A DNA stretch of 58,650 nucleotides from Acidobacteriota bacterium (GTDB lineage: Bacteria; Acidobacteriota; Vicinamibacteria; Vicinamibacterales; JACQTH01): positions 1 to 58,650 of the forward strand of contig JACOUA010000305.1 of NCBI GenBank assembly GCA_016178075.1. Direction: 5' to 3'. The position numbers and the translations under genes were made by a program. Each line of letters begins with the position of its first letter. The first letter of the stretch is position 1. Positions 3,998 through 58,012 of the stretch are shown in pieces. The notes below the pieces were generated by a model. The model was not told the origin of the DNA. It saw only the letters and a list, made by a program, of their open reading frames with translations, and ran no database searches.

Positions 3998-4447
3998 GTG
4001 ACCTGGAACCTCGACCGGATCGATCGTAGCATTGCGGCATTCATGCAGCAGTCGGGCACCACCGCGCTGCGGTGTTCGCTCGCTGTCATCTTCGTATGGT
4101 TTGGTGCCCTCAAGCCGCTGGGCCTCTCACCCGCGGCGGCGTTGGTGGAGTCAACCGTCGCGTGGTTGCCGTTCCTGTCGCCAAGCAGATGGGTCGCGAT
4201 AATCGGCTGGTGGGAGATCGCTATCGGCATCACGTTCTTGTTTCACAGGACGCTCCGACTCGCGATAGCGCTGCTGGCGGTGCAGATGATCGGAACATTC
4301 TTGCCGCTGGTCGTTCTGCCCCACGTGACGTTCCAAGCGGGCCGCGTGCCGTACGCGCCGACGATCGAAGGACAATACATCATCAAGAACCTGCTGATTA
4401 TCTCCGCGGCGCTGGTCGTCGGCGGGACGGTCCGAGAAAAGGCGTAG
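3998..4447 (+). CDS. DUF417/YkgB-like integral membrane protein
   Basis: GTG start. Four predicted TM helices. FVWFGALKPLG and a C-terminal YIIKNLLIISAALVVGG resemble YkgB/DUF417 architecture. The family call is tentative. Confidence 0.55.
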   Translation: MTWNLDRIDRSIAAFMQQSGTTALRCSLAVIFVWFGALKPLGLSPAAALVESTVAWLPFLSPSRWVAIIGWWEIAIGITFLFHRTLRLAIALLAVQMIGTFLPLVVLPHVTFQAGRVPYAPTIEGQYIIKNLLIISAALVVGGTVREKA

Positions 4448-9319: not shown

Positions 9320-10320
9320 GAGCCCTCCACGCCGCGGATCGCCCGCTTCACCAGGTTCCTGACGAGCGGCAGCTTGTAGCCGTTGTGCCGCAGCGGCTTC
9401 GCGCCTTCGATGGCCATTAGGCCGGCCATCTCGGCGGTCTGCTCGTTGCGCGGCTTGCCGCGCACGGCCGCCTCCACCGCCCGCAGGCGCACCGGATGGG
9501 CCGCCACGCCGTTGAGCGCCAGCCGCAGGTCCTGAATCGTGCCGCCCGAGGTCTTCATCACCGACGCGACGTTCACGAGCGGGAAGTCCCAGACCTTCCG
9601 GTCACGGACCTTCTCGAAGTAGAACTGCGACCCAGCCCACGTCCCGGGGATCCGGATCGCCACCAGCAGGTCGCCGGGCTTGAGAACGGTCATGCGGGTG
9701 ATATCGATCCCGGGTCCGATGAAGTAGTGCTCCGCGTCGACGATCTGCTCGCCGCTCGTGCTCCGAATCACCATCTTCGCGTCGAGGGCGATGAGCGCGG
9801 GCGCCGTGTCCGACGGGTTGACGGCCACGCAGCGGTCGGCGTCGAAGATTGCGTGCTCGCGGTTCATCGCCGTCGGCGTGTCCGCGTAGCAGATGTTGCC
9901 GCCGGCCCGATAGCACTCCCAGCCGTCGCGGTAGTACCAGCACCGCGTGTCCTGGGAGACATTGCCGCCGATCGTCCCCTGATTGCGAATCTGGGGCGAG
10001 GCCGCGGCTTCGGCCGCCTCGAGCAGCATCCCGAACTTCTCCCGCACGAGCGGGTGCCGCACGAGGTCGGTCAGCGTCGTCATCGCGCCGATCTCGAGGC
10101 CGTCGCCGGAGGCCCGAACCCCCTCGAGCTCCTTGACGCCGACGAGATCGACCACGACCTTCGGGCGCTTGATGCGGTCCTTCAGCCAGTCGAAGCTATC
10201 GAGGCCGCCCGCCATCACCCACGCGTCACTCTTGTACCGATTGAGGAGCGACAGCGCCTCTTCCACGTTCGCCGGCTGGAACAGCTCGAACGCCGGCATC
10301 ACATCGCGAATCACGGCCAT
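9307..10320 (-). CDS. xanthine dehydrogenase family FAD-binding (medium) subunit
   Basis: MAVIRDVMPAFELFQP..SDAWVMAGGLDSFDWLK matches the CoxM/PaoB-like FAD-binding domain. I chose ATG 10320 (AAGAGGA RBS 6 nt upstream) over the track start 10365, which lies inside a repeat element. Confidence 0.85.
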   Translation of the reverse strand: MAVIRDVMPAFELFQPANVEEALSLLNRYKSDAWVMAGGLDSFDWLKDRIKRPKVVVDLVGVKELEGVRASGDGLEIGAMTTLTDLVRHPLVREKFGMLLEAAEAAASPQIRNQGTIGGNVSQDTRCWYYRDGWECYRAGGNICYADTPTAMNREHAIFDADRCVAVNPSDTAPALIALDAKMVIRSTSGEQIVDAEHYFIGPGIDITRMTVLKPGDLLVAIRIPGTWAGSQFYFEKVRDRKVWDFPLVNVASVMKTSGGTIQDLRLALNGVAAHPVRLRAVEAAVRGKPRNEQTAEMAGLMAIEGAKPLRHNGYKLPLVRNLVKRAIRGVEGSWTS

Positions 10321-10334
10321 AGCTGATCCTCTTT

Positions 10335-10478
10335 TAGTTTGCGGCGGGGCGGCCGCTCCGCCCACACCGGAAAAACGACTGGGCTCCGCGGCGGTTCATT
10401 GTTTGGTCCCCGGACCCCTTGGATCCCCGTTGGCCCCGCCGCCTGTCGTCGCTTACGCTCCGGATCTTGTGTGGCACG
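10335..10478 (-). repeat. leader-element copy (core + 9-bp stem, 84-nt insertion in loop) between Moco and FAD subunit genes
   Basis: The minus strand reads ..AAGATCCGGAGCGTAAGCGACGACAGG-GCGGCGGGG-[84 nt]-CCCCGCCGC-AAACTAAAAGAGGATCAGCT-ATG(10320). Confidence 0.8.
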
Positions 10479-10496
10479 TCTTCCTGCTTCAGTCTC

Positions 10497-16424: not shown

Positions 16425-17067
16425 GAAAGAAGCTCTCAGCTCTCAGCTCTCAGCTCTCAGCTTGGTCCTGGCCTCGGTGCTGATTCCGGAGACGCTTGTC
16501 TCCGCCGATCAGTCTGACCGGCTCCGTCGTCTGGCGATCGACCCGTCGTCCAGCCAGATCACGATTCAGGTGGGCCGATCGGGGGTCTTCGGATTCGCCG
16601 GCCACGATCACGAAGTCGTGGGTCCGATCGGCTCCGGCGAAATCGCCCTCGATTCGAGCAACCTGGCGCGGTCGAGCGTCACGTTGACCATCGCGACGCG
16701 TTCGCTGAAGGTCACCGGCAAGGGTGAACCCAAAAAAGACGTGCCGGCGGTGCAGGACGCGATGGAGCGCGACGTGCTGGATGTGGCGCGACATCCGACG
16801 ATCCGGTTCGAGTCGCGGCAGGTGAAGGTCACGTCGCCGTCCGAATCGACGCCGGCGCTTGCCATTACAGGAGACCTGACGCTAGGCGGCGTCACGCGCC
16901 CCATCACCGTTCCCGCTCAGGTTCGTCTCGACGGGCGCTCGCTGACCGCCACCGGCACGGTCTCGATCAAGCAGACCGAGTTCGGGATCAAACCGGTGAG
17001 CGCCGTGGGCGGCACGGTCAAGGTGAGGGACGAGCTGCGGATCACGTTCAGGATCAGCGCGCGATAG
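16423..17067 (+). CDS. YceI family periplasmic protein
   Basis: [30 protein letters not shown] are YceI hallmarks. Only the ATG at 16423 yields a signal peptide ([28 protein letters not shown]). That ATG shares CATG with the divergent ettA start, so the start is uncertain. Confidence 0.75.
16431..16463. repeat. heptamer tandem array (AGCTCTC)x4.7; GCTGAGA on the ettA sense strand
   Basis: Direct reading gives agctctc agctctc agctctc agctctc agctt. It lies 6 nt from the ettA ATG and inside the putative yceI signal-peptide codons. Confidence 0.95.
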
Positions 17068-17080
17068 TAGGTCGTCGAAC

Positions 17081-18928
17081 TCACAGCGCCGTTGGTGACA
17101 CCCGACGGGTCGGCGGTGGCGGCGCCGCCTCGGGTTCCGGCGTGAAATCCTCGCCGGGGTTCACGAACCGATCGCTTTCGAACTGATACTGCTTATCGTA
17201 GAGCTGACGGTAGCGCCCGAGCGCCGCCAGCAGCTGCTCGTGCGTGCCGCGCTCCACGATCTCTCCATGTTCCAGGACCAGGATCTGATCGGCGCTCCGG
17301 ATCGTCGACAGGCGGTGCGCAATGACGAACGTCGTCCTGCCGTGGCGGAGCGATCGCAGGCCGTCCTGGATGAGCGCCTCGCTCTCGCTGTCGAGGCTCG
17401 AGGTGGCTTCGTCCAGGACGAGAATCCGCGGGTCGGCGAGGATCGCCCGCGCGATCGCGATCCGCTGGCGCTGGCCCCCCGACAACTTGATCCCGCGCTC
17501 CCCAACGATGGTGTCGTATTTCTCGGGAAACCCTTCGATGAACTCGTCGCAGTGGGCGATGCGGCTCGCCTGGCGGATTTCGGCGTCGGCCGCGTACGGC
17601 TTCGAATAGCGGATGTTGTCCGCCACCGAGCCGTCGAAGAGAAAGTTGTCCTGCAGGACGACGCCGAGCTGCGCACGGTAGTCGTGCAGCCTCAGCTGAT
17701 CCAGGTCGCGGCTGTCGACGAAGATCCGGCCGGCGGTGGGACGATGGAACGCCATCACCAGGCCGATCAACGTGCTCTTGCCCGATCCACTCGGCCCGAC
17801 GAGCGCCGTCGTCGATCCCGCGCGCGCGCGAAACGAAACGTGCCGCAGGACCGGCATATTCTGGCGGTACTCGAAGTTCACATCGTCGAACACCACCTCC
17901 CCGCGAACCTCGTCGATGGGGTCGCGCTTCTCGGACTCGTGACGCTCCGTATCCATCGAGCGAATCTCGCGGATCCGATCGAGGCCGGCAAACGCTTCGG
18001 TAATCTGCGTCCCAATCGACGCGATCTGGACCAGAGGCGCCGCGACCATCCCCGTGAAGAGAATATAGGTGACGAAGTCGCCCAGGGTCATCGTGCCGGC
18101 GAGAATCGCGCGGCCGCCGACCACGATCATGATGACCCCGATGACGCCGATCACGACCGTCGAGACCGCCGTCATGGCCGAAACGCCGGTGATCGTCTGC
18201 GCGACGTTGCGGAAGATTCGATGCACGCCTTTGGCGAAGACCAATTCCTCGCGCTTCTCGGCCGTGTAGGCCTTGACGACTCGAATGCCGCCGAGCGCTT
18301 CGTTCAGCCGGCCCGTCACCTCCGCGTTGATTTTGCCGCGTTCGCGGAAGATGGGCCGAAGCTTCATGAACGCCATCGCGAGGCACCCGCCGAAGGTGCC
18401 GAGCACCACGATCGTGATGAGGGTCAGGCGCCAGTTCAGGTAGAAGAGCACACCGATCGCGATGGTGGCGGTCACCAGGCCGCCGGCCAGCTGCACGAGG
18501 CCATTCCCCACCAGATTCCGGACGCCTTCCGCGTCGGTCATGATGCGGGAAATCAGGACGCCGGTCTTCGTCGAATCGAAGAAGCGGACCGGCAGGTGCA
18601 TGACGTGACGCTGCACCGCGCGCCGCATGTCGGTGATGGCGCGCTGCGCCGCGACGCCCAATACCTGGGAGAGCGCGAACGACGTTGCTGCCTGCACGAT
18701 CGTGGCGCCACCAACCGCCACCGCCAGCCACACGAGCAGGTCCGCGCGGTGCTTGACGATGATCTCGTCGATGAGGACCTTGGACGAGGCCGGCAACACC
18801 AGGCCAGCCAGACGGCTCACGAGCATCAGCACCAGCCCGATCGCCAGCCGGCGCTTGTGCTGCCACACGAGCTCCTGCGCCTCGCGCCAGGCAGCAGAGA
18901 CGGTGACTTTCTTTTTGGGAGGTTCCAT
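17081..18928 (-). CDS. ABC exporter, fused permease/ATPase (MsbA-like)
   Basis: 615 aa. Six-TM N-terminal domain, Walker A GPSGSGKST, signature LSGGQRQR, Walker B ILVLDEATS. Confidence 0.9.
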   Translation of the reverse strand: MEPPKKKVTVSAAWREAQELVWQHKRRLAIGLVLMLVSRLAGLVLPASSKVLIDEIIVKHRADLLVWLAVAVGGATIVQAATSFALSQVLGVAAQRAITDMRRAVQRHVMHLPVRFFDSTKTGVLISRIMTDAEGVRNLVGNGLVQLAGGLVTATIAIGVLFYLNWRLTLITIVVLGTFGGCLAMAFMKLRPIFRERGKINAEVTGRLNEALGGIRVVKAYTAEKREELVFAKGVHRIFRNVAQTITGVSAMTAVSTVVIGVIGVIMIVVGGRAILAGTMTLGDFVTYILFTGMVAAPLVQIASIGTQITEAFAGLDRIREIRSMDTERHESEKRDPIDEVRGEVVFDDVNFEYRQNMPVLRHVSFRARAGSTTALVGPSGSGKSTLIGLVMAFHRPTAGRIFVDSRDLDQLRLHDYRAQLGVVLQDNFLFDGSVADNIRYSKPYAADAEIRQASRIAHCDEFIEGFPEKYDTIVGERGIKLSGGQRQRIAIARAILADPRILVLDEATSSLDSESEALIQDGLRSLRHGRTTFVIAHRLSTIRSADQILVLEHGEIVERGTHEQLLAALGRYRQLYDKQYQFESDRFVNPGEDFTPEPEAAPPPPTRRVSPTAL

Positions 18929-18931
18929 TTT

Positions 18932-18977
18932 GCTATCAGCTATCAGCTTTCAGCTTTCAGCTATCAGCTTTCAGCTA
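18932..18977. repeat. heptamer tandem array (GCTWTCA)x6.5; GCTGAWA on the ABC-exporter sense strand
   Basis: gctatca gctatca gctttca gctttca gctatca gctttca gcta. The array ends 3 nt from the exporter ATG (18928). Confidence 0.95.
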
Positions 18978-19125
18978 GAGCTTCCATCTTCAGTTCACGT
19001 TTCCATATCAGGATCTCCCTTAATCGTATCAGCTTCGGCCCGCTGTCTTGAGCCGCTGATAAACTGACACGAGGCGCAGCGGTTCGGAGAGCTGAAAGGT
19101 GAGAGTCTGAGAAACAATGCCCGAG

Positions 19126-23494: not shown

Positions 23495-25525
23495 TTATTT
23501 CCTGAAAATCCCCCTCAACCGAGCGCTGATGTCCCGAAGCATGTCAGCTATCGCGCGAGACGCCCGCTCCTGCAGCGTGATCTGATGAAGCGGACAGGTG
23601 CGATTCGGAATCGCATCGCCTGGCTTGAAGTACTCGACGTAGGTGGGACAGCCTTCGGCAGGCCGGAGGTACGTGACGCTGCAGAGGACCTCGTCGCGCA
23701 GGCCGGCGGGCACGGCAAATCGGCCCGACGGTCGTGAACGGGCCGCGCGCCGCATGAAGTCGGCCCAGATCGGCAGCGCCACGCGCGCCCCGAACGCCTC
23801 CCGCGCGATCGGCGTCGGCTGATCGAAGCCCACCCACACGCCGGCGACGAGGCGGTTCGAAAACCCGACGAACCACGCATCCTTGAAGTCGTCCGTCGTC
23901 CCCGTCTTTCCGGCCGCGGGGAAGTCGACGCCGAGCGCACGGGCTCTCGCGCCGGTGCCGCGATCGATCACGTCCTGCAGCATCGAGACGATCTGGAACG
24001 CCGTCTCCGGCGAGAGCACCTGCCGCCGTTCCGCCGGCTCCTCGAGGGCCACGCCGCCCTCCGCATCCAGCACGCGGGGCAGCGCCAGCGGCTTCACGGC
24101 AAACCCGCCGTTGGGAAACATCGAGTACGCCAGCGTGAGCTCGAGCGGCGTCACAACGCCGGTCCCGAGCGCGAGCGAGGGCACGTCCGGGAGCCCCTCG
24201 AGGCCCGCGCGCGACGCCAGCGTCAGGACAGGTTGTGATCCCACCTGCTGCTGCAACATCACGGCGGCGCGATTATCGGAGGCGAGCAAGGCCGCCCGCA
24301 GCGTCAGCTCGTCGGCCGATTCCCCGCGCGCGTTGTGCGGCGCCCACTCGTCGGGCCCCTGGGGCGCGATGCTGTTGAGACCCCGGAGGATCGAGACAGG
24401 CGACAACCCCCGCTCGAGGGCCGCGGCGTAGACGAATGGTTTGAAGGCCGAACCGGGTTGGCGCCGGCTGCGCGTGGCGCGGTTGTACGGATAACTCGCG
24501 AAGTCGCGACCGCCCACGAGCGCGAGCAGGTTCCCGGTGTCGGGATCGACAGCCACGAGCGCCGCCTGAAGATCCCGACGATTCAGACGTTGCAAACCCG
24601 TCTCGACCGCCTGTTCGGCCGCGAGCTGCAGCGCGCGCTCGAATGTGGTGTGGACCTGCCAGTCCGGCGGATGGCTGCCTCCGAACCGATCGCGAAAGCG
24701 CTGACGCAGGAACTCCTTCGCATAGCCCGATCGAGCGATCGCGCTTCGCGGGTACGGCCGGACAAGGAGCTGGGCCCTTGTCGCCTGACGCTCCTCCGCC
24801 CCGCTGATGGCCCGCTCCTCGCGCATACGCCCGAGGACGACGTGGCTGCGGCGGACCGCTGCGTCGAGGTTCGACCAGGGCGAGAACACCGACGGCGCGC
24901 GGATGAGACCCGCGATCAACGCTGCTTCCGCCAACGTGACGTCGCGCGACGGCTTGCCAAACAGCCGGCGCGCCATCGGCTCCACTCCGTACACGCCGGC
25001 GCTGAGATACACACGATTGAGATACAGCTCGAGAATCTGCTGCTTCGTCAACTGCTGCTCGATCATCCAGGCGATGCCCGCTTCTTTCAGCTTCCGGCCC
25101 CAGGTCCGCGAGTTCGACAGAAAGAGCGTGCGGGCGAGCTGTTGCGTGATCGTGCTGCCGCCTTCGACCGCGCCGGCGCGCCGGAGGTTTCGCGCCGTCG
25201 CGCGCACCAGCGCGATGGGATCGATGCCGGGATGCAAGAAGAATCGATGATCTTCGATCGCAACGACGGCCCGCTGCAGGTAGGGTGAGATCTCGGCGAG
25301 CGGCACGTCCTGGCGCTGCTCGTCCATGCGGAACCAGGGCTGCCCATCCGCCGTGTAAAAGACCGTATCGCCGACGCCCAGCCGCAAGCGGCTGACCGCC
25401 AGCTCGTAGCGGGCCAGCCACGCCACCACCGCGAGTCCCCAGGCCACCAGCAGCGCCAACAGGCCCAGCGCCGCGCACTGGCGCAGCGTGATCCCGAACA
25501 GCCGGGTTCGCAATTGGCGCATCAT
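23495..25525 (-). CDS. PBP1A-family bifunctional penicillin-binding protein (transglycosylase/transpeptidase)
   Basis: GT51 motifs AVVAIEDHRFFLHPGIDP, GGSTITQQL, RKLKEA. Transpeptidase motifs SAFKPFVY (SxxK) and KTGTT. I chose ATG 25525 because the track start 25549 (GTG) lies in a repeat hairpin. Confidence 0.9.
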   Translation of the reverse strand: MMRQLRTRLFGITLRQCAALGLLALLVAWGLAVVAWLARYELAVSRLRLGVGDTVFYTADGQPWFRMDEQRQDVPLAEISPYLQRAVVAIEDHRFFLHPGIDPIALVRATARNLRRAGAVEGGSTITQQLARTLFLSNSRTWGRKLKEAGIAWMIEQQLTKQQILELYLNRVYLSAGVYGVEPMARRLFGKPSRDVTLAEAALIAGLIRAPSVFSPWSNLDAAVRRSHVVLGRMREERAISGAEERQATRAQLLVRPYPRSAIARSGYAKEFLRQRFRDRFGGSHPPDWQVHTTFERALQLAAEQAVETGLQRLNRRDLQAALVAVDPDTGNLLALVGGRDFASYPYNRATRSRRQPGSAFKPFVYAAALERGLSPVSILRGLNSIAPQGPDEWAPHNARGESADELTLRAALLASDNRAAVMLQQQVGSQPVLTLASRAGLEGLPDVPSLALGTGVVTPLELTLAYSMFPNGGFAVKPLALPRVLDAEGGVALEEPAERRQVLSPETAFQIVSMLQDVIDRGTGARARALGVDFPAAGKTGTTDDFKDAWFVGFSNRLVAGVWVGFDQPTPIAREAFGARVALPIWADFMRRAARSRPSGRFAVPAGLRDEVLCSVTYLRPAEGCPTYVEYFKPGDAIPNRTCPLHQITLQERASRAIADMLRDISARLRGIFRK

Positions 25526-25595
25526 TTCTTGGTTGCGGCGGGGCCCCACCCCCGCCGCCTGCCGTCGCTTACGCTCCGGATCTTGCTTGCCACGC
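25526..25595 (-). repeat. leader-element copy directly upstream of the PBP1A start
   Basis: The minus strand reads GCGTGGCAAGCAAGATCCGGAGCGTAAGCGACGGCAGG-GCGGCGGGG-GTGGGG-CCCCGCCGC-AACCAAGAA-ATG(25525). Confidence 0.8.
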
Positions 25596-25692
25596 GTTCC
25601 CGCTTAGTGTCGCAGAGCGATAGGGCCCCGGAAAGCAGGGTCGAGGTGTGTTGATTCGGACCCAACTATCGGGATGCAAGCCTGCGGCCAGC

Positions 25693-25935
25693 CTACCTCT
25701 CAATTCGGACTCTGATGAGCTCGACGCGATCGACGGGCGCCTCGCCGTTTCGCGGAACCGACTCGATCGCCTCCACGACCGACAGCCCATCGACGACACG
25801 CCCGAACACGCTGTACCGGCGGTCGAGCGTGGGGGCGCGTCCTGCGCAGATGAAGAACGACGTCGACGCGCTGTTGGGCGTCGAATCTGGCCATCGACAG
25901 GATCCCCTTGGCCCCACCCCTACGGAAGTCTCGGC
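25693..25935 (-). pseudogene. cyclophilin-type peptidyl-prolyl isomerase remnant (N-terminal half missing, 1-nt frameshift)
   Basis: GILSMAR reads in one frame (25886..25906). The next frame gives STPNSASTSFFICAG..YSVFGRVVDGLSVVEAIESVP..PVDRVELIRVRI. Only about 80 of about 160 residues remain, and the remnant starts right at the permease stop. Confidence 0.6.
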
Positions 25936-28858: not shown

Positions 28859-28876
28859 GCCGGCGATTCTAAATCA

Positions 28877-28919
28877 AGCTCTCAGCTCTCAGCTATCAGC
28901 TCTCAGCTCTGCTCTCAGC
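28877..28919. repeat. heptamer tandem array (AGCTMTC)x6; GCTGAGA on the ABC-ATPase sense strand
   Basis: agctctc agctctc agctatc agctctc agctct gctctc agc. The array lies 18 nt from the ATPase ATG (28858). Confidence 0.95.
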
Positions 28920-29001
28920 GCACAGTTTCGTCTAAGATCGAAGTGGAGATCATCGTCGCGAGTCACCGCGGCGAGCGAGAGCGACCCGCCTCCGCTCTTC
29001 G

Positions 29002-29066
29002 AGCTTCCGCCTTCGCTGAAGCTACGGCGGACCGCCGAAGCCTTGGCGGAGGCTGGTCGGCGGGCA
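29002..29066. repeat. REP-like long palindromic element (CGGCGGACCGCCG centre)
   Basis: AGCTTCCGCCTTCGCTGAAGCTACGGCGGACCGCCGAAGCCTTGGCGGAGGCTGGTCGGCGG. About 85% identical by eye to the reverse complement of 35083..35148. Confidence 0.8.
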
Positions 29067-29084
29067 AGGCCGCTTGTCCGCCGT

Positions 29085-29142
29085 AGCCGTGGCGAAGGCG
29101 GATGGCAGGTCGTGGGGGTGGGGCCCCACGACAAACCCAAGA
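29085..29142 (+). repeat. leader-element copy directly upstream of the lhr start (plus strand)
   Basis: The plus strand reads GCCGTGGCGAAGGCGGATGGCAGG-GTCGTGGGG-GTGGGG-CCCCACGAC-AAACCCAAGA-ATG(29143). The core is more diverged, but the stem is perfect. Confidence 0.75.
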
Positions 29143-32100
29143 ATGACGAAGCCGGACGCCGCGCTGCACCTGTTTCATCCGGTCGTGCGCCAGTGGTTCG
29201 TCGACACGTTCGGCCGCCCGACGGCCGCGCAGGCGCAGGGCTGGCCAGCCATCGCGCGCGGGGAGTCGGTGCTGATCCTCGCGCCGACCGGCAGCGGCAA
29301 GACCCTCGCCGCCTTTCTCTGGTGCATCGAGCGGCTGATGTTCCAGCCCGTGCCGCCGCGAGGTGAACGCTGTCGGGTGCTGTACATCTCGCCGCTCAAA
29401 GCGCTCGCGGTCGACGTCGACAGGAACTTGCGCGCGCCGATCGCCGGCATCACGCAGGCCGCAGCCCTGCGCCAGGCTCAGGGCGCCCGGAGCTCGTCGA
29501 GGGACGAGGCGCTCGCCCAGGCCTTGTCGGTGCCGACCGTCGGGGTCCGATCCGGCGACACCCCCGCGACCGAGCGCGCGCGGTTTCAGCGCGACCCGAC
29601 CGACATCCTGATCACGACACCGGAGTCGTTCTACCTTCTGCTCACCTCCAACGCGCGCGAGGCGCTGCGCTCGATCGACACCGTCATCGTGGATGAAATC
29701 CACGCCCTGGTCCCGACCAAGCGTGGGGCCCACCTCGCCCTGTCGATCGAGCGGCTCGAGGCGCTCGCCGGCCGGCCGCTGCAGCGCATCGGCCTCTCGG
29801 CCACGCAACGCCCGCTCGACGAGGTGGCGCGCTTCCTGGGCGGCGTCGAATCGTGGCGTCCGGTATCAGCCGGAAGATCCTCGGCCAAGGGATCCTTCCG
29901 CCCGACGTCGGAACTCACGAAGACGATCGAGCGCGCAGCGGCCGCCCTCGAACACGATTTTGGCGATGCGGTCGCCAACGTCCGTTACCGACCCGTCACG
30001 ATCGTCGATGCGGGCTCCCGCAAGCCGCTCGAGCTCCTCGTCGAAGTGCCGGTCGAGGACATGGCGCGGTTGGGCGGCGAGGTGCGGCCGCCGATCGCTC
30101 CGCCGAGGGGCGCCCCGTCGACGTCCATCTGGTCGGCGGTTCACCCTCGGCTCGTGGACCTGATTCGTGCGCATCGATCGACGCTCATCTTCGTGAACAA
30201 CCGCCGGACGGCGGAGCGACTCGCAGCGGCGATTAACGAACAGGCCGCCGAGCCGCTCGCGCGCGCGCATCACGGCTCGCTGGCGCCGGCCCAACGATCG
30301 GAGATCGAGGAGGCCCTCAAAGGCGGCACGCTCCGCGCGCTGGTGGCGACCTCGTCGCTCGAGCTGGGGATTGACATGGGGGCGATCGATCTGGTGATCC
30401 AGATCGAAGCACCCCCGTCGGTGGCGAGCGGGTTGCAGCGCATCGGGCGGGCCGGCCATCGGATCGACGCGCCGAGCCGGGGGGTGATTTTTCCGAAGTT
30501 CCGCGCCGATCTCCTGGCCTGCGCGACGGCCACCCGCGCGATGCACGCGGGGCTGGTGGAGTCGTCGATCTATCCCCGCAACCCGCTCGACATCCTCGCC
30601 CAGCAGGTCGTGGCGATGGCGGCCATGGATCGCTGGCCGATCGACGAGCTGTTCGATCGCGTGCGGCGCGCCGCCCCGTTCGCCACCTTGAGCCGGGCGA
30701 TCTTCGAGAGCGTGCTCGACATGCTGGCCGGACGCTACGCCTCGGACGAGTTCGCCGATCTCAAGCCGCGGCTGACTTGGGACCGCATCCGCCAGACTAT
30801 CGTCGCGCGCGAGGGCGCGCGCCGTGTCGCCGTCGCCAACGCCGGCACGATCCCCGATCGCGGTCTCTACGGCGTCTTCCTCACACGCGGGTCGGAAGGG
30901 GCCCGGGCCGTGCGCGTCGGCGAGCTGGACGAGGAAATGGTCTTCGAGACCAAGGCCGGCGAGACGTTCGTCCTCGGCGCCTCCACGTGGCGCGTCGATG
31001 AGATCACGCACGACCGCGTGCTGGTGTCGCCCGCGCCCGGCGAGCCGGGCAAGATGCCGTTCTGGCGGGGCGACGCTGCCGGCCGCCCCATCGAGTTCGG
31101 CCGGCTGATTGGCACGCTCGTGCGCGAGCTGCTGCAGATGCCACCCGGTGCGGCGGTGAGGCGATTGGTCAAAGAGCATGACCTGGACGAGCGGGCTGCG
31201 GAAAACCTCGTTCGCTACCTCAAGGACCAGACGATCGCCACGGGCGCGGTGCCGAGCGACGACACGATCGTGATCGAGCGCTGCCGCGACGAGCTGGGGG
31301 ACTGGCGCGTCTGCGTCCTCACCCCCTTCGGCAGCCAGATCCACGCGCCGTGGTCGATGGCCGCGGTCGCGCAGTTCAAGGACCGCCGCGATGTCGATGC
31401 CGAGGCCATGTGGACGAACGACGGGTTCGTGCTGCGGGTGCCGGAGACCGACGAGGCCCCTGACGCCTCGCTCGTGCTGCCCGCGGCGAACGACCTCGAG
31501 GCGCTCGTCATTCGACGGCTCGGAGCCTCGTCGCTCCTCGCGGCGAAGTTCCGCGAGGCCGCCGCCCGCGCCCTCCTCCTGCCGAAGCGGCGGCCCGGCG
31601 GCCGCACGCCATTGTGGCAGCAACGAAGACGCGCGTCGGATCTGCTGGCAGCCACGTCGCGGTTCCCCTCGTTCCCCATCGTGCTCGAGGCGTACCGGGA
31701 ATGTCTGCGGGACGTGTTCGACATTCCGGCGCTTCGTGACACGCTTCAGCGCATTGCCGACGAATCGGTGAAGGTCGTCACCGTCACGTCGGATAAACCG
31801 TCACCCTTTGCGTCCGCGCTTCTGTTTGGGTACGTCGCGAAGTACATCTACGAAGGCGATGCGCCGCTCGCCGAGCGCCGCGCACAGGCGCTGACCATCG
31901 ACCAGGCACAGCTCCGAGAGCTCCTTGGCGACGCCGATCTCCGTGACCTGCTCGACGCGGACGCGACCGTCCAGGTGGAGCGCGAGCTCCAGTCGCTGGC
32001 TGCCGGCTATCGTGTCCGAACCGCCGACGGCGTGCACGACCTGCTGCTGCGTCTGGGGCACCTCAGTCTCGACGAGCTCGACGAGCGAACGGAGGGGCTT

Positions 32101-51346: not shown

Positions 51347-53473
51347 CTACTCCTGCCCCGGAGGCGCCGTCGTTGTGATCTTCCCACCCGCGGGCCGCGT
51401 GTACTTCTTGAACCAGCTCATCATGTAGAGCTGTGTCCGGACGTAGTTCGACGGCTTCGAGCCGGTGCCGTGGTACTCCTCGTTGAACTGCAGGAGCGCC
51501 GCCGGAACACCGCGCATCTTCAGCGCCGCGTAGTACTCTTCGGTCTGTGGCATCGGCGTCCGCCGATCCAGCACGCCCGTCATCAGCAGTGTCGGCGTGG
51601 TGACCTTCCCCACCGACATCAGCGATGAGTGCGAGAGCCACTCCTGGGGATCCTCCCAGAACGGCTTGCGGAAGAAGCTGTACGTGAAGAGCGGGATATC
51701 GGTGTGACCAGCGAAGCTGAGCCAGTCGATCACCGGGCATCGAACCGCGGCCGCCGCGAAGCGATCGGTGTGGCCGATCACCCAGCTCGACAGCACACCT
51801 CCCCCACTGCAGCCGGAGACGTACATCTTCGTCGTGTCGATGAAGCCTTTGGCCACGATCGTGTCGACACCCGCCATCAAGTCGTCGTAGTCTGGCCCCG
51901 GGTAGTTGTGATCGATCCCGTTCGAGAAGTCGCTGCCGTAGCCGGTGCTGCCGCGCGGATTGGCATAGAGCACGACGAAGTCGTTCGCCGCGAAGTTCTG
52001 GAACATGTAGTTGAACGCGATGCTGTACATCGAGAATGGGCCGCCGTGGATTTCGAGAATGAGGGGGTACTTCTTCGACGCGTCGAACGATGGCGGCCTG
52101 ATAATCCATCCCTGCACTTTCGTGTTCCCGGTCGACTGATACCAGATCTCCTCGGCCTTCGCGACCTGCTTGCCGGCGAGCACGTCACCGTTGACGTCAG
52201 TCAGCTTCGCGATCTGGGTGGGCCTGCCCTGAGCGGAGTCGAAGGGCTGGCGCAGGCTGTAGCGGACGACATCCTGCGGGTGCTCGGAATTGGTCTCGGT
52301 GCCGGCGGCGACGAGATCTCGGGACATCGAATCGAACGTCAGGATGTGGGTGCCGGTCGTCACCGGCTTCACGCCACCGGCGGTCGCTGAGACGAAGTAG
52401 ACGTTCTCGGATCCGCGGTCCTGTGAAGCGAAATAGACACCGCTGCCATCCGGCGCCCACCGCACGTTGGCCGGATCGCGATCGAAGTCACCGCTGATCT
52501 TCCGCATGTTGTCCCCGGCAATCGAGACCACGTAGAGGTCGCTGACCGTGTGGGTGCGGCCGGATGGCGGGTAGCCGGTCAACGCCACGGATCTCCCGTC
52601 GGGCGAAACGGACGGCCGTCCCCAGGAGCCTGGCTTCGAGACGAGATCGCGAATCGTGCTCGTCGCCACGTCGACGATGTAGATCTGCGCTGATTGGTAC
52701 TTCAAATCGGCATTCGGATCTCGCAGGCCGTCGAAGACAATCGACTTGCTGTCGGGCGTCCAGTCAATCGCCGCCGCCGTGCGCAGCTCGCCAGGACCGA
52801 CGTTCCACTTGCCGCTCGTCAGTGGTCGTGGCGTCCCGCCGTCGGCCGGAACAACGAACAGATGCGTGTACCCATCCTCGAGGAAGCCCACCTGGTCCTG
52901 CCGATAATGCAGCGACTCGACGAAGCGCGGCGCGGGCGTCCACTTCGCGCCCTTCGGCTCCGGTGGCATCGAGATGGGCAGGGTGTTCCTCTCCGGCACG
53001 AACATCGAGAAGGCGATCGATTTCCCGTCAGGGGCCCAGCGCGGGCCGCGCGGCGTCTCGGTGACGTGCGTGATCTGCGTGGCTGGTCCATCTACGTCGA
53101 CCCAGCGAACGAAGATCTGAGACCCCTTCGGCTCGCCTTCCGCGAGATACAGCAGCCGCTTGCCGTCCGGCGACCAGCGCGGGCCGGATCCCTTGATGAG
53201 GAGCCGATGCTGCGACCCGTCCGCGTTCAGAATCCAGAGCTCGGACTCCCACTTGTCTTCCAGCGTGTTCACGTGCTGGCGCGTGTAGACGATACGGGAG
53301 CCGTCCGGCGAGATTTGGGCGTCGCTGACGCGCTCCCAATCGAGGTAGTGCTCAGTTGTCAGGCGCGACGACGAGCGGGATTCCTGAGCGCGCACCGGCG
53401 ACTGGGCGAGGAGCCCAATCGCCAAGATGACCGCCACCAACAGACCGACGACGAGCGGGTGACGCAGTCTCAT
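51347..53473 (-). CDS. S9 family serine peptidase (prolyl oligopeptidase/acylaminoacyl-peptidase type) with N-terminal beta-propeller
   Basis: Signal peptide, TolB-like propeller repeats (SPDGSRIVY, SPDGKRLLY, APDGKSIAF, SPDGRSVAL, APDGSGVYF), nucleophile elbow GCSGGG, C-terminal EEYHG. Confidence 0.9.
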   Translation of the reverse strand: MRLRHPLVVGLLVAVILAIGLLAQSPVRAQESRSSSRLTTEHYLDWERVSDAQISPDGSRIVYTRQHVNTLEDKWESELWILNADGSQHRLLIKGSGPRWSPDGKRLLYLAEGEPKGSQIFVRWVDVDGPATQITHVTETPRGPRWAPDGKSIAFSMFVPERNTLPISMPPEPKGAKWTPAPRFVESLHYRQDQVGFLEDGYTHLFVVPADGGTPRPLTSGKWNVGPGELRTAAAIDWTPDSKSIVFDGLRDPNADLKYQSAQIYIVDVATSTIRDLVSKPGSWGRPSVSPDGRSVALTGYPPSGRTHTVSDLYVVSIAGDNMRKISGDFDRDPANVRWAPDGSGVYFASQDRGSENVYFVSATAGGVKPVTTGTHILTFDSMSRDLVAAGTETNSEHPQDVVRYSLRQPFDSAQGRPTQIAKLTDVNGDVLAGKQVAKAEEIWYQSTGNTKVQGWIIRPPSFDASKKYPLILEIHGGPFSMYSIAFNYMFQNFAANDFVVLYANPRGSTGYGSDFSNGIDHNYPGPDYDDLMAGVDTIVAKGFIDTTKMYVSGCSGGGVLSSWVIGHTDRFAAAAVRCPVIDWLSFAGHTDIPLFTYSFFRKPFWEDPQEWLSHSSLMSVGKVTTPTLLMTGVLDRRTPMPQTEEYYAALKMRGVPAALLQFNEEYHGTGSKPSNYVRTQLYMMSWFKKYTRPAGGKITTTAPPGQE

Positions 53474-53774
53474 CGGACACCTCTCTTAGTTTGCCGTGGG
53501 GCTGCTCGCTCCGGCGAGCCCCCACCCCCACGGCCTGCCGTCGCTTACGCTCCGGATCTTGATTGCCACGCCTGTTGTTAAACTTGAAACGCCGTGGGGC
53601 TGCTCGCTCCGGCGAGCCCCCACCCCCACGGCCTGGCACGGCTCGCTTACGCTCGCCGCGCTGGTTTGCCACACCGATCCGCTCAGTGTGCGACTTCGCG
53701 GGGCCCCACCCCACGACCTGCCGTCGCTTATGCTCCAGATCTTGATCGCCACGCCTGTCGTCCAACTTGAACAC
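53474..53774 (-). repeat. three tandem leader-element units upstream of the S9 peptidase start
   Basis: Unit starts are at about 53493, 53591 and 53698 (periods 98 and 107 nt). Units 1 and 2 share an identical 42-nt hairpin, GCCGTGGGG..CCCCACGGC. Unit 3 is degenerate. Unit 1 ends ..AAACTAAGAGAGGTGTCCG-ATG(53473). Confidence 0.85.
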
Positions 53775-53833
53775 AAGGATCCCCTTCTTGCGGGGCGGCG
53801 TGAGTGCGCCGACATTATATAATCCCGGGCCAA

Positions 53834-56800
53834 ATGCTCATGAAGCGCATCTTTCTTTCCTTCCTTCTCGCCCTGGCATCGGCGACCCTTGCGCCCAACG
53901 CCCAACAGAAGCCGACCGCTCTGCGGCCGGCTTCTGCCCCGTTCACCGTGGTCGAAGCGTCCATCGTCGACATGCGGACGGCCATGGAACAGGGGCGCAC
54001 CACGTCGCGCGAGATCGTCCTTCAGTACCTCGCGCGGATCGCGATGCACGAGGACAAGCTCAACGCCGCCATCACCGTCAATCCGCGCGCCCTCGAGGTC
54101 GCCGAGGAACGCGACCGCGAGCGGGCGCAGGGCAAGATCCGCGGGCCGCTCCACGGCATTCCGATCGCGCTCAAGGACAACATCCATACGACCGACATGC
54201 CGACCACCGGCGGCGCGCTCGCCTTCGCCGGTCTGGTGCCGCCGTACGAAGCCACGTTGACGAAGAACTTGCGCGACGCTGGCGCCGTCATCATCGCCAA
54301 AACGGTCATGACCGAGCTGGCCAATTGGGTCGCCAGTGGGATGCCCGGCAACTACAGCGCGGTCGGCCGGTACGGGATGAATCCATATGATCCGCGGCGC
54401 GACCCACGTGAAGCCACGGCCGACGGCCGGCCTGCACTTGCGACGGGAGGATCGAGCTCCGGCATCGGCACCTCGGCGAATCTGTGGGCGGCCAACGTCG
54501 GCACCGAGACATCCGGATCGATCCTCAGCCCTTCGAACCAGAACATGCTGGTCGGCATTAAGCCCACTGTGGGCCGGATCAGCCGGTACGGCATCATTCC
54601 GATTACCGCCGATCAGGACACGGCGGGCCCGATGGCGAAGACCGTGACGGACGCCGCCATCCTGCTCGGCGCGCTCGAGGGTGCTGAGCCGGACGCGAAC
54701 GATCCGGCGACGAAGACCTGCGCTCCGCCGTCCGGGCGCGACTACACCCAATTCCTGAAGCCCGACGGGCTCAAGGGAGCGCGCATCGGGATTCCCCGCG
54801 CGAGCTACTACGACAAGACGACGCCGCCGGGCGCGAAGGAGCCTCGCGGCGGCCTCCCCGAGCCCCAGGCCAAGGTGATGGCCGACGCAATCGCCGCGCT
54901 CACAGCGCAGGGGGCCGTCATCGTCGATCCCGCCGACATTCCGAGCGTCGTCACGAAGGAGGCCAAGGACAACTTCCTTCTTTGGTCCACGTGCGGCGGC
55001 CTGGACAACGCGAAAGGCAAGGACGCCGACTGTTCCGTTGTGCTCAAGTACGGCATGAAGCGCGATTTCAACGAGTGGCTCAAATCGCTCGGGCCGGTGG
55101 CGCCGGTCAGGACGCTGACGGAGCTCCGTCAGTGGAACGTGGCGCACCAGAAGGCGGGCGCGATCAAGTACGGCCAGGCGCAGCTCGACGTCTCCGACGA
55201 AATGGACGTCGACGCCGATCGGGCGCGCCATCGCGCGGATCGGGAGAAAGACCTGCGGCTGAGCGCAACGAGCGGCATCGACGCGGTGATGAAAGAGCAC
55301 GCGCTCGATGCGCTCCTGTTCCCGGGCGCGGGCGGCGCCGCCATCGCCGCGAAACCCGGCTACCCGACCGTGATCGTGCCGTTTGGCTTCGTGCCGAACG
55401 CGCCGACCCCCCCGTTCCCGGATGGGTTCGCTGCGAACCCGGGGCCCCTGGGCGTGGCCTTCACCGGCACGGCGTGCAGCGAACCGCGGCTCATCGGCCT
55501 CGCCTATGCGTTCGAGCAGGCGACCAAGCGCCGGGTGCCCCCGTCGTCCGCGCCGCGGGAGCCTGCCGCGCCGCGGGCGGCTCACCCCGCCTTCAAGATC
55601 GTCGAGGCCACGATTCCCGAGATGCGGGCGGCCATGGAGCAAGGACGCCTCAGCTCGCGTGAACTCGTCCGGCAGTACCTGGCGCGCATCGCGATGTACG
55701 AGGACACGCTGAACGCCTCGATCGCGATCAATCTTCACTCACTCGAGATCGCCGACGAGCGTGACGGCGAGCGGGCGCAGGGAAAGATCCGGGGCCCGTT
55801 GCACGGCATCCCGATCGCGCTCAAGGACAACATCCACACGACCGACATGCCGACGACCGGTGGCGCGTTGGCCTTCGACGGCTATGTGCCTCCGTACGAA
55901 GCGACCCTCACCAAGAATCTGCGCGACGCGGGCGCCATCATCATCGCGAAGACCGGTTTGACCGAGCTGGCCAACTGGGTCGCCGGCGCACCTTCGCCGA
56001 TGCCTGGCAACTACAACGCCGTCGCCGGCTTCGGCTTCAACCCCTACGATCCGCGCCGCGATCCGCGCGAGGCCACGTTCGACGGCCGCCCCGCGCTCGC
56101 GACCGGCGGGTCGAGCTCTGGTGTCGGCACCGCCGCGAGCTTCTGGGCCGGCAACGTCGGGTCCGATACCGGCGGATCGATCATCAGCCCGTCGAATTCG
56201 AACATGTTGGTCGGGATCCGTCCGACCATCGGCCGCATCAGCCGCTACGGCGTCATCCCCATCAGCGCCGATCACGATACCGCCGGCCCGATGACGCGGA
56301 CCGTGGCGGATGCCGCCATCATGCTCGGCGTGCTCGAGAGCCCCGCGCCGGATCCCAAGGATCCGGCGACGAAAACCTGCGCGCCGCCGGCGGGACGTGA
56401 CTACACGAAGTTTCTGAACGCCAGCGGGCTCACGGGCGCGCGCATCGGCATCCCGCGCGCGTTCTACTACGACCGAATCACACTGCCAGGCGAGGAGAGA
56501 CCCCGTAGCGGCCTCAATGCCGAGCAGACGAAGCTGATGGCCGACGCCATCGGCATTCTCAAACAGCAGGGCGCGGTCATCGTCGATCCGGCCGACGTAC
56601 CGAGCTTCGTCGACAAGGACCCGAAGACCAACTTCCTGCTCTGGGACTACTGTTCGGGCGCGGATCAAGCCAAGGGGAAGGACGCGAGCTGCTCGGTGAA
56701 CTTCAAGTACGGGATGAAGCGCGACTTCAACACGTGGCTCGCCAGCCTGGGACCGTCGGCGCCCGTCAAGACCCTGACGGAACTTCGGACCTGGAACCTC

Positions 56801-57217
56801 GCGCACCAGAGAGCCGGCGCGATCAAGTACGCTCAGTCGAGGCTCGACATCTCCGACGAGATGGACCTCGAGGCGGATCGCCCGCGCTTCAACGCGGATC
56901 ACGAGAAGGACCTGCGCCTGAGCCGCGACCGAGGGATTGACGGCGTGCTGAAGGCACAGAAGCTCGATGCGATTCTGACCCCTGGCGGGAGCGGCGCGGG
57001 GCTCGCCGCGCGCGCGGGCTATCCGATCATCGTGGTTCCATTCGGCCTGACGCCGAATGCGCCGACGCCGCCGTTCCCCGACGGGTTCAACGCGAGGCCG
57101 GGACCGTTTGGCGTCGGCTTCACGGGCGCGGCGTGCAGCGAGCCACGGCTCATCGAGCTGGCGTACGCGTTCGAGCAGGCGACCAAGCGGCGCGTGCCGC
57201 CTTCGTCGGTACCGTAA
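53834..57217 (+). CDS. secreted tandem double amidase (two complete amidase-signature domains in one ORF)
   Basis: Signal peptide MKRIFLSFLLALASATLA. Two collinear ~540-aa units (about 53942..55555 and 55592..57214, period 1650 nt), each with the IALKDN Lys and GGSSSG. The nucleophile region is GTETSGSI in unit 1 and GSDTGGSI in unit 2. Confidence 0.85.
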   Translation: MLMKRIFLSFLLALASATLAPNAQQKPTALRPASAPFTVVEASIVDMRTAMEQGRTTSREIVLQYLARIAMHEDKLNAAITVNPRALEVAEERDRERAQGKIRGPLHGIPIALKDNIHTTDMPTTGGALAFAGLVPPYEATLTKNLRDAGAVIIAKTVMTELANWVASGMPGNYSAVGRYGMNPYDPRRDPREATADGRPALATGGSSSGIGTSANLWAANVGTETSGSILSPSNQNMLVGIKPTVGRISRYGIIPITADQDTAGPMAKTVTDAAILLGALEGAEPDANDPATKTCAPPSGRDYTQFLKPDGLKGARIGIPRASYYDKTTPPGAKEPRGGLPEPQAKVMADAIAALTAQGAVIVDPADIPSVVTKEAKDNFLLWSTCGGLDNAKGKDADCSVVLKYGMKRDFNEWLKSLGPVAPVRTLTELRQWNVAHQKAGAIKYGQAQLDVSDEMDVDADRARHRADREKDLRLSATSGIDAVMKEHALDALLFPGAGGAAIAAKPGYPTVIVPFGFVPNAPTPPFPDGFAANPGPLGVAFTGTACSEPRLIGLAYAFEQATKRRVPPSSAPREPAAPRAAHPAFKIVEATIPEMRAAMEQGRLSSRELVRQYLARIAMYEDTLNASIAINLHSLEIADERDGERAQGKIRGPLHGIPIALKDNIHTTDMPTTGGALAFDGYVPPYEATLTKNLRDAGAIIIAKTGLTELANWVAGAPSPMPGNYNAVAGFGFNPYDPRRDPREATFDGRPALATGGSSSGVGTAASFWAGNVGSDTGGSIISPSNSNMLVGIRPTIGRISRYGVIPISADHDTAGPMTRTVADAAIMLGVLESPAPDPKDPATKTCAPPAGRDYTKFLNASGLTGARIGIPRAFYYDRITLPGEERPRSGLNAEQTKLMADAIGILKQQGAVIVDPADVPSFVDKDPKTNFLLWDYCSGADQAKGKDASCSVNFKYGMKRDFNTWLASLGPSAPVKTLTELRTWNLAHQRAGAIKYAQSRLDISDEMDLEADRPRFNADHEKDLRLSRDRGIDGVLKAQKLDAILTPGGSGAGLAARAGYPIIVVPFGLTPNAPTPPFPDGFNARPGPFGVGFTGAACSEPRLIELAYAFEQATKRRVPPSSVP

Positions 57218-57376: not shown

Positions 57377-58012
57377 ATGATGACCCCTGACGACTACACG
57401 CGCGCCCGGCGGATCCTGCTCCGCCGCGATCCCGTCCTCGCGTCGATCATTCGCGGCCGTGGCGCCTGCGGCCTCGCCGACCTGCCACCGCGCGATCCCT
57501 TCACGGCGCTGGTACGCGCGATCACCTACCAGCAGCTTTCGACCAGCGCCGCGACGACGATCTTCAATCGCCTGCTCGCGCGCGTCGCCAACGGATCGTC
57601 ACTCGCGCCGGAACACCTCGTCGCGCTCTCGGACACTGACCTGCGATCGGCGGGCTACAGCCGGCAGAAGATTGGCTACATGAGGGATCTCAGCGAGAGA
57701 GCCTCAGCCGGGACGATTCGGTTGCACGCGCTCCACGACATGACCGACGAAGACGTCATCACCGAGCTGACGCAGATCAAGGGGATCGGCCGCTGGTCGG
57801 CGGAGATGATCTTGATCTTCACGCTCAAACGGCCCGACGTGTTTCCGATCGCCGATTTCGGCATCCTCAAAGCGATTCGACTCGCGTATCGGCTCCGCAA
57901 GCCGCCGAGCGTCGTGCGTCTGCAGAGAATTGCCGAGCCCTGGCGCCCGTACCGATCGGTCGCGTGCTGGTACCTCTGGCGGAGCCTGGACAACGGCACG
58001 CCCGGCAAGTGA
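57377..58012 (+). CDS. DNA-3-methyladenine glycosylase II-like HhH-GPD protein (AlkA C-terminal type)
   Basis: 211 aa. ITYQQLSTSAATTIFNRL, helix-hairpin-helix IKGIGRWSAEMILIF, and catalytic Asp in PIADFG. Confidence 0.8.
   Translation: MMTPDDYTRARRILLRRDPVLASIIRGRGACGLADLPPRDPFTALVRAITYQQLSTSAATTIFNRLLARVANGSSLAPEHLVALSDTDLRSAGYSRQKIGYMRDLSERASAGTIRLHALHDMTDEDVITELTQIKGIGRWSAEMILIFTLKRPDVFPIADFGILKAIRLAYRLRKPPSVVRLQRIAEPWRPYRSVACWYLWRSLDNGTPGK

Follow-up and report, generated by a model that had tools for sequence, protein, structure and literature searches.

The DNA examined here (the window) is a 58,650-nucleotide (nt) stretch, contig JACOUA010000305.1, of an Acidobacteriota bacterium assigned to Vicinamibacterales (GenBank assembly GCA_016178075.1). 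It holds, at four loci, six units of a short repeated element, three of them before a gene for an S9 peptidase and one each before the genes for PBP1A, the FAD subunit of a Mo-hydroxylase, and Lhr, and all six share the sense of the downstream gene. These genes were taken to be unrelated in an earlier note on this DNA (the original prediction), and Pfam domains confirm their identities (Peptidase_S9; Transgly and Transpeptidase in PBP1A; FAD_binding_5/CO_deh_flav_C; Lhr). On the minus strand at 53471-53771, three units run head to tail into GAGGTGTCCGATG, the Shine-Dalgarno (SD) sequence and start codon of the Peptidase_S9 gene; the S9 leader is ~300 bp long. We conclude with high confidence that the element represents a new family of oriented interspersed repeats of Vicinamibacterales (Acidobacteriota subdivision 6); the general kind, interspersed intergenic repeats, is already known, and this family is undescribed. 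The reading that we prefer for the S9 leader, with a probability of about 0.5, is that it consists of three head-to-tail copies of a non-autonomous interspersed repeat whose 3' module acts as an initiation leader. Action of the element as RNA is plausible.

Each unit contains an upstream hairpin (H1) and a downstream hairpin (H2), and H2 is ordinarily followed by a tail that leads to the start codon (Table 1); the distal S9 unit has no tail of its own, because the next unit adjoins it directly. The original prediction centered on a near-invariant 27-nt core. This core, AAGATCCGGAGCGTAAGCGACGGCAGG, does occur four times, always on the minus strand and with 0 to 2 mismatches, where none is expected by chance (10442-10468, 25558-25584, 53534-53560, and 53717-53743), but it is absent from the S9 middle and lhr copies, which carry instead the canonical, longer H1 (CGCGGC-GAGCGnnAGCGA-GCCGTG). 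The core is itself a hairpin, CCG-GAGC-GUAA-GCGA-CGG, and corresponds to H1 in a short-stem form together with the linker. The stems of 9 bp, the tails, and the GTGGGG loop are as claimed, with stem-to-ATG distances of 9, 10, 19, and 20 nt; the three stem positions that differ among the copies change on both arms, and pairing is intact in every stem; and the two gene-proximal S9 units have an identical 42-nt hairpin (53493-53534 and 53591-53632). Of the two spacings proposed for the S9 array, that of 98 nt stands, but the second, measured hairpin to hairpin, is 85 nt rather than 107 nt. The distal unit, described as decayed, is so only mildly, with a score of 23 bits for its 8-bp stem with one G.U pair. 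Tandem Repeats Finder called no tandem repeat at the S9 triplet, because the three units are heterogeneous and of different subtypes.

Layout and covariation of the unit

The layout was defined on an alignment (A1) of 71 canonical copies from other genomes, with no window sequence in it. With the left junction (..AAG^CRG) and the start codon as its limits, a unit measures ~80-100 nt, and it comprises a weakly conserved 5' segment, H1, a linker, H2, a tail, and the ATG. The left junction reads ..(C)T(A/G)AAG^C(A/G)G. H1 has the consensus C-G-NNNN / NNNN-U-G around GAGC-loop-GCGA, within which GA/AG are able to form tandem sheared pairs and GC/GC closes the loop; the loop is 3-7 nt long, conforming to GNRA in 24/36 tetraloops and to GAA in 10/17 triloops. 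In the subfamily with the short-stem core, which was also seen before atpA and ilvB in other metagenome-assembled genomes (MAGs), the outer stem of H1 is just CCG/CGG. The linker (U)GG(C/U)AGG, with a conserved YAGG, connects H1 to the GC-rich H2 (NNNNGGGG / CCCCNNNN, loop GUGGGG), and the A/purine-rich tail, CAAA(C/G)(U/C)AAGAAA, abuts the SD or the ATG. A third, more 5' hairpin (H0) was considered and rejected as a general feature, being 42.6% paired in A1 with a mean fold z-score of -0.25, while it is real in single copies such as the S9 middle unit.

Both stems covary, in agreement with the compensatory changes that had been proposed for the window. Across the 71 copies, the outer stem of H1 is 99.3% paired, with three pairs showing 26-35 two-sided changes, and pairing in H2 is 98.6%, four of its pairs likewise having changed in both partners; altogether, seven pairs of H1 and H2 show 11-35 double changes, and one G.U pair in H1 is retained in 70/71 copies. 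None of 500 shuffled controls reached the observed covariation score, and sliding the 3' partners reduced pairing to 31-42%. Covarying helices on the predicted transcribed strand are what marks a structured cis-acting RNA, but a DNA hairpin would need them equally.

A covariance model built from A1 recovered all six window units (Table 1) and also picked up ~30 unseeded copies in the fetched loci, with the same layout, orientation, and adjacency to an ATG. A further match in the window (57442-57551, minus strand; 9.6 bits, E=0.44) was treated as noise. That the element belongs to no named RNA family, as originally suggested, is borne out by searches of the window against Rfam 15 (including Acido-1 and Acido-Lenti-1), which gave no match at gathering thresholds; 10 loci with canonical copies gave one tRNA only, and the best subthreshold matches in permissive scans of the window and canonical copies were <=17 bits. 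Literature searches by taxon, topic, and literal sequence found no description of the element.

Two window copies are interrupted. The split H1 of the lhr copy was read by eye against loci L110 and L088/L099/L068, which have the same kind of insertion and are aligned full-length by the model. In the FAD-subunit copy, the 84 nt inserted into the loop of H2 include ...GGGGACCAAACAATGAAC, similar to the 3' arm of another H2 followed by a tail and an ATG; this insertion is probably a fragment of another unit.

Table 1. Units of the element in the window, their parts, and their recovery by the covariance model built from other genomes
Feature	Positions	Strand	Details	Model match	Score
S9 proximal unit	53484..53590	-	Left motif TTCAAG 53583-53588; tail AAACTAAGA 53484-53492	53474-53564	40.0 bits
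S9 proximal unit, H1	53538-53555	-	Short-stem variant, within the 27-nt core		
S9 proximal unit, H2	53493-53534	-	9-bp stem; loop holds an inserted 16-nt inner hairpin		
S9 peptidase native SD and start codon (GAGGTGTCCGATG)	53471..53483	-	Element stops directly 5' of GAGGTGTCCGATG		
S9 middle unit	53591..53695	-	Most canonical copy in the window; local 5' hairpin 53670-53690; linker CCAG; H2 53591-53632	53572-53704	71.7 bits, E=2e-20
S9 middle unit, H1	53637-53660	-	CGCGGC-GAGC-GUAA-GCGA-GCCGUG, with the conserved G.U pair		
S9 distal unit	53696..53771	-	Left motif TTCAAG 53766-53771; H1 variant 53721-53738		23.1 bits, searched alone
S9 distal unit, H2	53696-53716	-	8 bp including one G.U pair; 5-nt loop		
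PBP1A copy	25526..25610	-	Left motif ACTAAG; H1 25562-25579; H2 25535-25558; tail AACCAAGAA 25526-25534; ATG 25523-25525	25516-25625	61.7 bits
FAD-subunit copy	10321..10493	-	Between Mo-hydroxylase large subunit (stop 10497-10499) and FAD subunit (ATG 10318-10320)	10330-10462	19.5 bits
FAD-subunit copy, parts		-	H1 10446-10463; H2 arms 10434-10442 and 10341-10349; tail with SD 10321-10340		
FAD-subunit copy, insertion	10350-10433	-	84 nt, splitting the H2 arms		
lhr copy	28964..29142	+	Opposite strand, sense of lhr; H2 29109-29132; tail AAACCCAAGA 29133-29142; ATG 29143	29047-29151	49.3 bits
lhr copy, split H1		+	5' half 28967-28984; nested second repeat 28985-29085; 3' arm 29086-29091		

Distribution and position relative to genes

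An exact 20-mer from the core retrieved five further loci in Vicinamibacterales MAGs, three of them directly before atpA. The pattern GGCAGG-N3-6-GGGGGTGGGGCCCC, which places no constraint on the 3' arm, the upstream part, or the tail, retrieved >115 loci among the matches listed, and the hosts among these are almost all MAGs of Vicinamibacterales, Vicinamibacteria, "gp6," or unclassified Acidobacteriota; the few matches in other phyla are without the flanking features.

With more than 100 copies from other genomes at hand, the bias in orientation and start-codon distance that the original prediction anticipated is strong in both respects. The first ATG lies <=40 nt after H2 in 113/127 copies, with a mode at 11-12 nt (48 copies) and a second mode at 20-22 nt formed by copies with an AAGAGG-type SD between tail and ATG. 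We counted a gene start as validated if a start codon lay <=45 nt away, the open reading frame (ORF) had >=80 codons, and G+C content at third codon positions was highest in that frame, and we applied the same test to the other side and strand as a mirror control. A validated start follows 80/111 terminal copies (>=72%) versus 8/111 (7%) in the control, and many of the failing terminal copies precede short genes (tatA, purS) or are upstream ORF (uORF) cases. Among 30 randomly sampled downstream ORFs, 28 have Pfam domains, often aligned from residue 1-6, and the element-adjacent ATG is therefore the true start. Their products include NuoF, NuoJ, NuoM, PurS/Q/M/E/F, L11, GltX, and DivIVA. At three orthologous loci (L036 at ~4330-4370, L100, and L104), the element-adjacent ATG opens a short uORF (ATGATA..., 6-12 codons) whose end coincides with, or shortly precedes, the main gene's SD or start codon.

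The gene upstream is co-directional in 94/125 copies, and its stop codon falls within ~20 nt of the left junction in ~35/71, so that a unit usually fills the intercistronic spacer. Most copies are thus intercistronic spacers inside operons, among them nuo, atp, pur, and rplK, and not promoter-proximal 5' untranslated regions (UTRs). Orientation set by replication was rejected: on one contig, copies lie at 0.39 (-), 0.73 (+), 0.82 (-), and 1.70 Mb (+), and the alternation along single contigs, where orientation follows the genes, argues against control by replication direction.

Mobility, function, and competing explanations

Comparison of orthologous junctions indicates that the element comes and goes. 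In ~35 Vicinamibacterales relatives, the atpH-atpA spacer is 0-25 nt long and element-free; the element is found there in L001, L004, and L006 and, with another upstream module, in L130, and some other MAGs have unrelated repeats at this spacer. The S9 peptidase of the window is 70-78% identical in amino acid sequence to its orthologues in the nearest Vicinamibacterales species representatives, which puts the source of the window in this order too; element-free orthologues read ..AGGAGGTGTCCGATG, the native sequence being kept at the S9 orthologues, and in the window the element ends exactly at GAGGTGTCCGATG. Three relatives have H2-type elements of other subfamilies at the same S9 position. 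An array of six nearly identical tandem units with a period of 102 nt, resembling a variable-number tandem repeat, precedes a gene for a FAA-hydrolase (L009, 6650-7285). Foreign insertions interrupt the H2 loop in the FAD-subunit copy, L046, L111, and L051 and the H1 loop in the lhr copy, L068, L088, and L099. One and the same H2 and tail can follow any of several different upstream modules. Variants of the H1 stem are for the most part genome specific (8/8, 9/11, and 6/7 copies in the three best-sampled MAGs), and H2 stems vary within genomes. From the presence/absence pattern, the nested insertions, the arrays, and the genome-specific H1 stems, we therefore regard the element as an expanding non-autonomous repeat.

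A second repeat family (of the CCGCCTCCGC...GCTACGGCG...GCGGAGGC type), itself a long inverted repeat, was observed nested in the H1 or H2 loop of the element. Its sites are window positions 28985-29085 (~100 nt) and L068, L088, L099, L045, L046, L111, L025, and L051.

The alternative that the original prediction offered, an element like a miniature inverted-repeat transposable element (MITE) that delivers a translation-initiation region, fits best, with its presence/absence at orthologous sites, nesting, arrays, and genome-specific subfamilies; the tail of the element replaces the native spacer up to the SD or ATG. The classical features of MITEs are lacking, since we found neither terminal inverted repeats (TIRs) nor target site duplications (TSDs): the unit ends (CRG... 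/ ...CTAAG/AAGAAA) are not reverse complements, and the left and right 5-mers differ in most copies (e.g., CTAAG versus GTAAG or CTGAG). ..AAG^CRG at the left and ..AAG^ at the right recur and would mark the ends approximately.

The units sit in essential operons right before start codons, and in many cases their displacement of the native spacer has left the stretch from H2 to the ATG without an SD, which makes it most likely that the 3' module (H2 plus the A/purine-rich tail) serves in mRNA as a self-contained initiation leader. We propose that the element spreads or homogenizes as DNA by a strand-specific route that would land it at the purine-rich 5' edge of translation-initiation regions. 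It would be tolerated even in such operons as nuo, atp, pur, and rplK if H2 locks the GC-rich upstream sequence into a stable hairpin and the 9-20 nt of A/purine-rich tail (often with AGGA or AAGAGG) and the start codon are thereby left unpaired for the ribosome. Between cistrons, H1 plus H2 may have a further role as a boundary in mRNA processing or stability, at the H1-H2 junction. We also considered an SD hidden in H2, where GGGGGUG could pair with CACCUCC, and judged it unlikely, as it would lie ~24 nt from the ATG and be locked in the stem.

Copies at orthologous sites are consistent with a functional constraint. In six orthologous sets, identity over the 75-nt stretch that begins with H1 and includes the tail is 0.79-0.95, versus 0.61-0.73 for synonymous third positions of the adjacent gene (in the more diverged pairs) and 0.45-0.69 for the 5' 50 nt. 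This conservation fits selection in place.

Several points weigh against the preferred reading. We infer the RNA-level role purely from sequence and the mobility from presence/absence patterns alone, as no TIR or TSD and, in the sampled flanks, no transposase was found; a stable hairpin 11 nt before the ATG might equally hinder initiation; and the excess of conservation could equally come from gene conversion between copies or from repeated insertion. The covariation lies mostly between genome-specific subfamilies and thus stands for few independent events. H2 mismatches comprise 6 G.U and 8 A.C, with no RNA-specific wobble asymmetry, and uncompensated single mismatches occur in L003 and L004. 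The hairpins with their conserved G.U/G.T pair fit single-stranded DNA (ssDNA) signals for a transposition system equally well, and the inner hairpin of H1, GCGAAGC, would fold well as ssDNA too. GCGAAGC is a classic ultrastable DNA mini-hairpin.

Some of these points favor a selfish element that acts solely as DNA, of the IS200/IS605-PATE or REP type, which we regard as a possible explanation, though a clearly less probable one. The hairpins would here be ssDNA signals for a trans-acting HUH or other transposase, insertion would be strand specific and 3' of an ..AAG target in purine-rich initiation regions, from which the sense orientation and the closeness to start codons would follow, and the RNA would be merely harmless. 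Besides the mini-hairpin, the equal frequency of G.U and A.C mismatches, and the decay through uncompensated ones, it would account for the lack of TIRs and TSDs, for the left flank and right end that are both ..AAG yet differ within a copy, for hairpins near both ends, for a conserved G.T pair such that only one strand folds well, for genome-specific H1 stems reminiscent of REP/RAYT pairs, and for nested insertions and insertion hot spots. However, tblastn searches with approximate IS200 and IS608 TnpA queries found only noise in ~1.4 Mb of DNA flanking the loci, a weak test for a Y1 transposase (two weak matches lay inside an S9 peptidase gene); orientation tracks genes, whereas that of IS200/IS605 elements is tied to the replication fork; the tail shares in the conservation of the element and appears to replace the SD spacer functionally in essential operons; and, in orthologous copies, conservation of the hairpin modules exceeds that of synonymous sites. 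Nor does the unit have REP/REPIN architecture: there is no GTAG head (YAGG precedes H2) and there are no inverted doublets, the arrays being head to tail in a single orientation.

Less likely still is a host cis-regulatory or processing RNA that punctuates operons, with a protein or RNase recognizing H1 or the YAGG linker and cleaving between H1 and H2; the upstream mRNA would then receive a 3' hairpin and the downstream mRNA a 5' hairpin, which would set the stability and translation of the cistrons. The architecture, in which a conserved single-stranded linker connects two hairpins, the occurrence of units at boundaries (atpH-atpA and nusG-rplK) whose downstream gene has to be expressed more strongly, the tandem G.A pairs and GNRA bias of H1, H1 stems whose genome specificity could mean co-evolution with a binding factor, and the constraint at orthologous sites are all compatible with it. 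The great diversity of the downstream genes argues against it, as do several unrelated upstream modules that have just H2 and the tail in common and the presence or absence of the element at the same junction in close relatives, which makes it dispensable. Equally speculative, to our mind, is a reading in which the element would be a self-propagating "translation-initiation cassette" that installs a hairpin-insulated, largely SD-independent ribosome entry site, possibly with a processing boundary, between cistrons throughout the order; H1 would co-evolve with a genome-encoded partner, and the element would actively shape operon stoichiometry (atpH-atpA, nusG-rplK, nuo, and pur) instead of simply being tolerated.

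Two further explanations carry very little weight. One is a mobile promoter of the sigma-70 type, directed outward, which the 5' segment (TTGACT ... GAATCA) would provide, with H1/H2 as its 5' UTR; an outward promoter was part of the original prediction and was not upheld. TTGACT does lie 17 nt upstream of a (G/T)AATCA-like hexamer in some copies, and units do precede genes needing strong expression, but TTGACT is present in a minority of copies only, the -10-like hexamer is missing the final T that is invariant in such sites, no other part is conserved as poorly as the 5' segment, there is no conserved pair of -35 and -10 hexamers at a spacing of 16-18 nt, and a promoter/terminator scan of 53350-53950 found neither a sigma-70-like promoter nor a terminator-like site. 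TGGCAGG as a sigma-54 -24/-12 site was likewise rejected by eye, there being no GC at -12. A U-tract-free ("I-shaped") attenuator or terminator acting on the upstream gene, which the very stable, GC-rich H2, usually 60-100 nt downstream of a co-directional stop codon, might suggest, is just as improbable, given the A-rich sequence without a U-tract after H2, the outcome of the same scan, and the position of units inside operons such as nuo, atp, and pur, where an essential cistron follows at once and a new promoter would not fit.

Other features of the window were noted as well. In the ~60-nt gap between the S9 distal unit and the amidase start (ATG 53834/53840), the 10-bp AT palindrome ATTATATAAT (53814-53823) gives TATAAT without a mismatch whichever strand is read; divergent promoters could share it as their -10 element, in which case the three units would lie in a 5' UTR of ~340 nt in the S9 mRNA, and the amidase mRNA would have almost no leader. 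The amidase gene (53834-57217) is a single ORF of 1127 aa with two Amidase domains, whose halves are 73-77% identical in DNA with a period of ~1655 nt; it represents either a tandem duplication that has become fused or two paralogues whose separating stop codon was missed. A short ORF (25693-25900, minus strand) that adjoins the PBP1A element on its upstream side and ends in ...FGRVVDGLSVVEAIESVPRNGEAPVDRVELIRVRIER resembles the C terminus of a PPIase of the cyclophilin type and could represent a truncated gene. Heptamer microsatellites, (AGCTCTC/AGCTATC)n, occupy gene boundaries at 16430-16476, 18923-18983, and 28876-28922. Similar arrays fill intergenic spacers of related MAGs, namely, GGTCAGG-type arrays (L213/L218/L238) and inverted ATTGCGG arrays (L224/L233/L234), and further ones lie at atpH-atpA of L128, L146, L154, and L155.

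Significance and comparison with known systems

Vicinamibacterales are abundant soil bacteria and almost uncultured, and we know of no work on how they express their genes. Located exactly between stop and start codons of core operons in many species, the element provides a practical annotation landmark for operon junctions and for true starts of genes. It may reveal how genomes that are rich in GC and poor in SD sequences avoid structure at their initiation sites, and it could offer a ready-made compact leader module for synthetic operons.

Several classes of known repeats share part of its properties. (i) REP/BIME elements and REPINs (RAYT) are likewise GC-rich imperfect palindromes in predicted transcribed intergenic DNA, with species-specific sequence classes, clusters, and a possible role in mRNA stability. 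They differ in having a GTAG head and inverted doublets, whereas this element is arranged head to tail in one orientation with no RAYT found in the sampled flanks (a weak test), and in lying mostly after stop codons regardless of the next start, whereas this element abuts start codons. (ii) PATEs derived from IS200/IS605 similarly lack TIRs and TSDs, have subterminal hairpins and a structure specific to one strand, and apparently resemble this element in a short conserved motif that recurs at the left flank and the right end; unlike them, this element follows genes rather than replication in its orientation and has a conserved initiation tail, and no TnpA partner was found in ~1.4 Mb of flanks, a weak test. 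(iii) The Correia elements of Neisseria, BOX, and ERIC are of comparable size (~100-150 nt), fold as RNA, and are modular or mosaic; they are co-transcribed with neighboring genes and can alter expression, as this element may do. Correia elements differ by 26-bp TIRs, a TA duplication, and occurrence in either orientation and BOX and ERIC by the lack of a fixed start-codon distance. (iv) Nijveen, Matus-Garcia, and van Passel reportedly described, in 2012, putative mobile promoters, homologous upstream sequences before unrelated genes within a genome; this element differs in that no promoter signal was found in it and most of its copies are inside operons.

The closest analogue is the mycobacterial interspersed repetitive unit (MIRU). 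In the summary of Supply et al. 1997 given in PMC12548453, MIRUs are mobile repeats whose insertion takes place at start codons and hardly affects the downstream gene, to which the MIRU ORF is translationally coupled by a -4 nt overlap. Both elements are short (~50-100 bp), dispersed in a GC-rich genome, apparently mobile, and able to form tandem arrays; both are found at start codons or in intercistronic operon spacers in one orientation relative to transcription, the position expected of a MIRU-like repeat being that of 80/111 copies here versus 8/111 in the mirror control; and both are apparently built for insertion with little disturbance of downstream expression. There is no sequence similarity between them, and the phyla are different. 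Instead of a coupled ORF, this element has two strong hairpins, its own A-rich leader, and no conserved frame: no reading frame is kept across the unit, the junction-to-ATG length modulo 3 being distributed as 26/20/15, and ATGA is present in 40/108 copies, with 10/11/7 for the same measure in this subset. It would be a second independent case, after MIRU, of a mobile repeat adapted to start codons without harm to the host, by a different trick.

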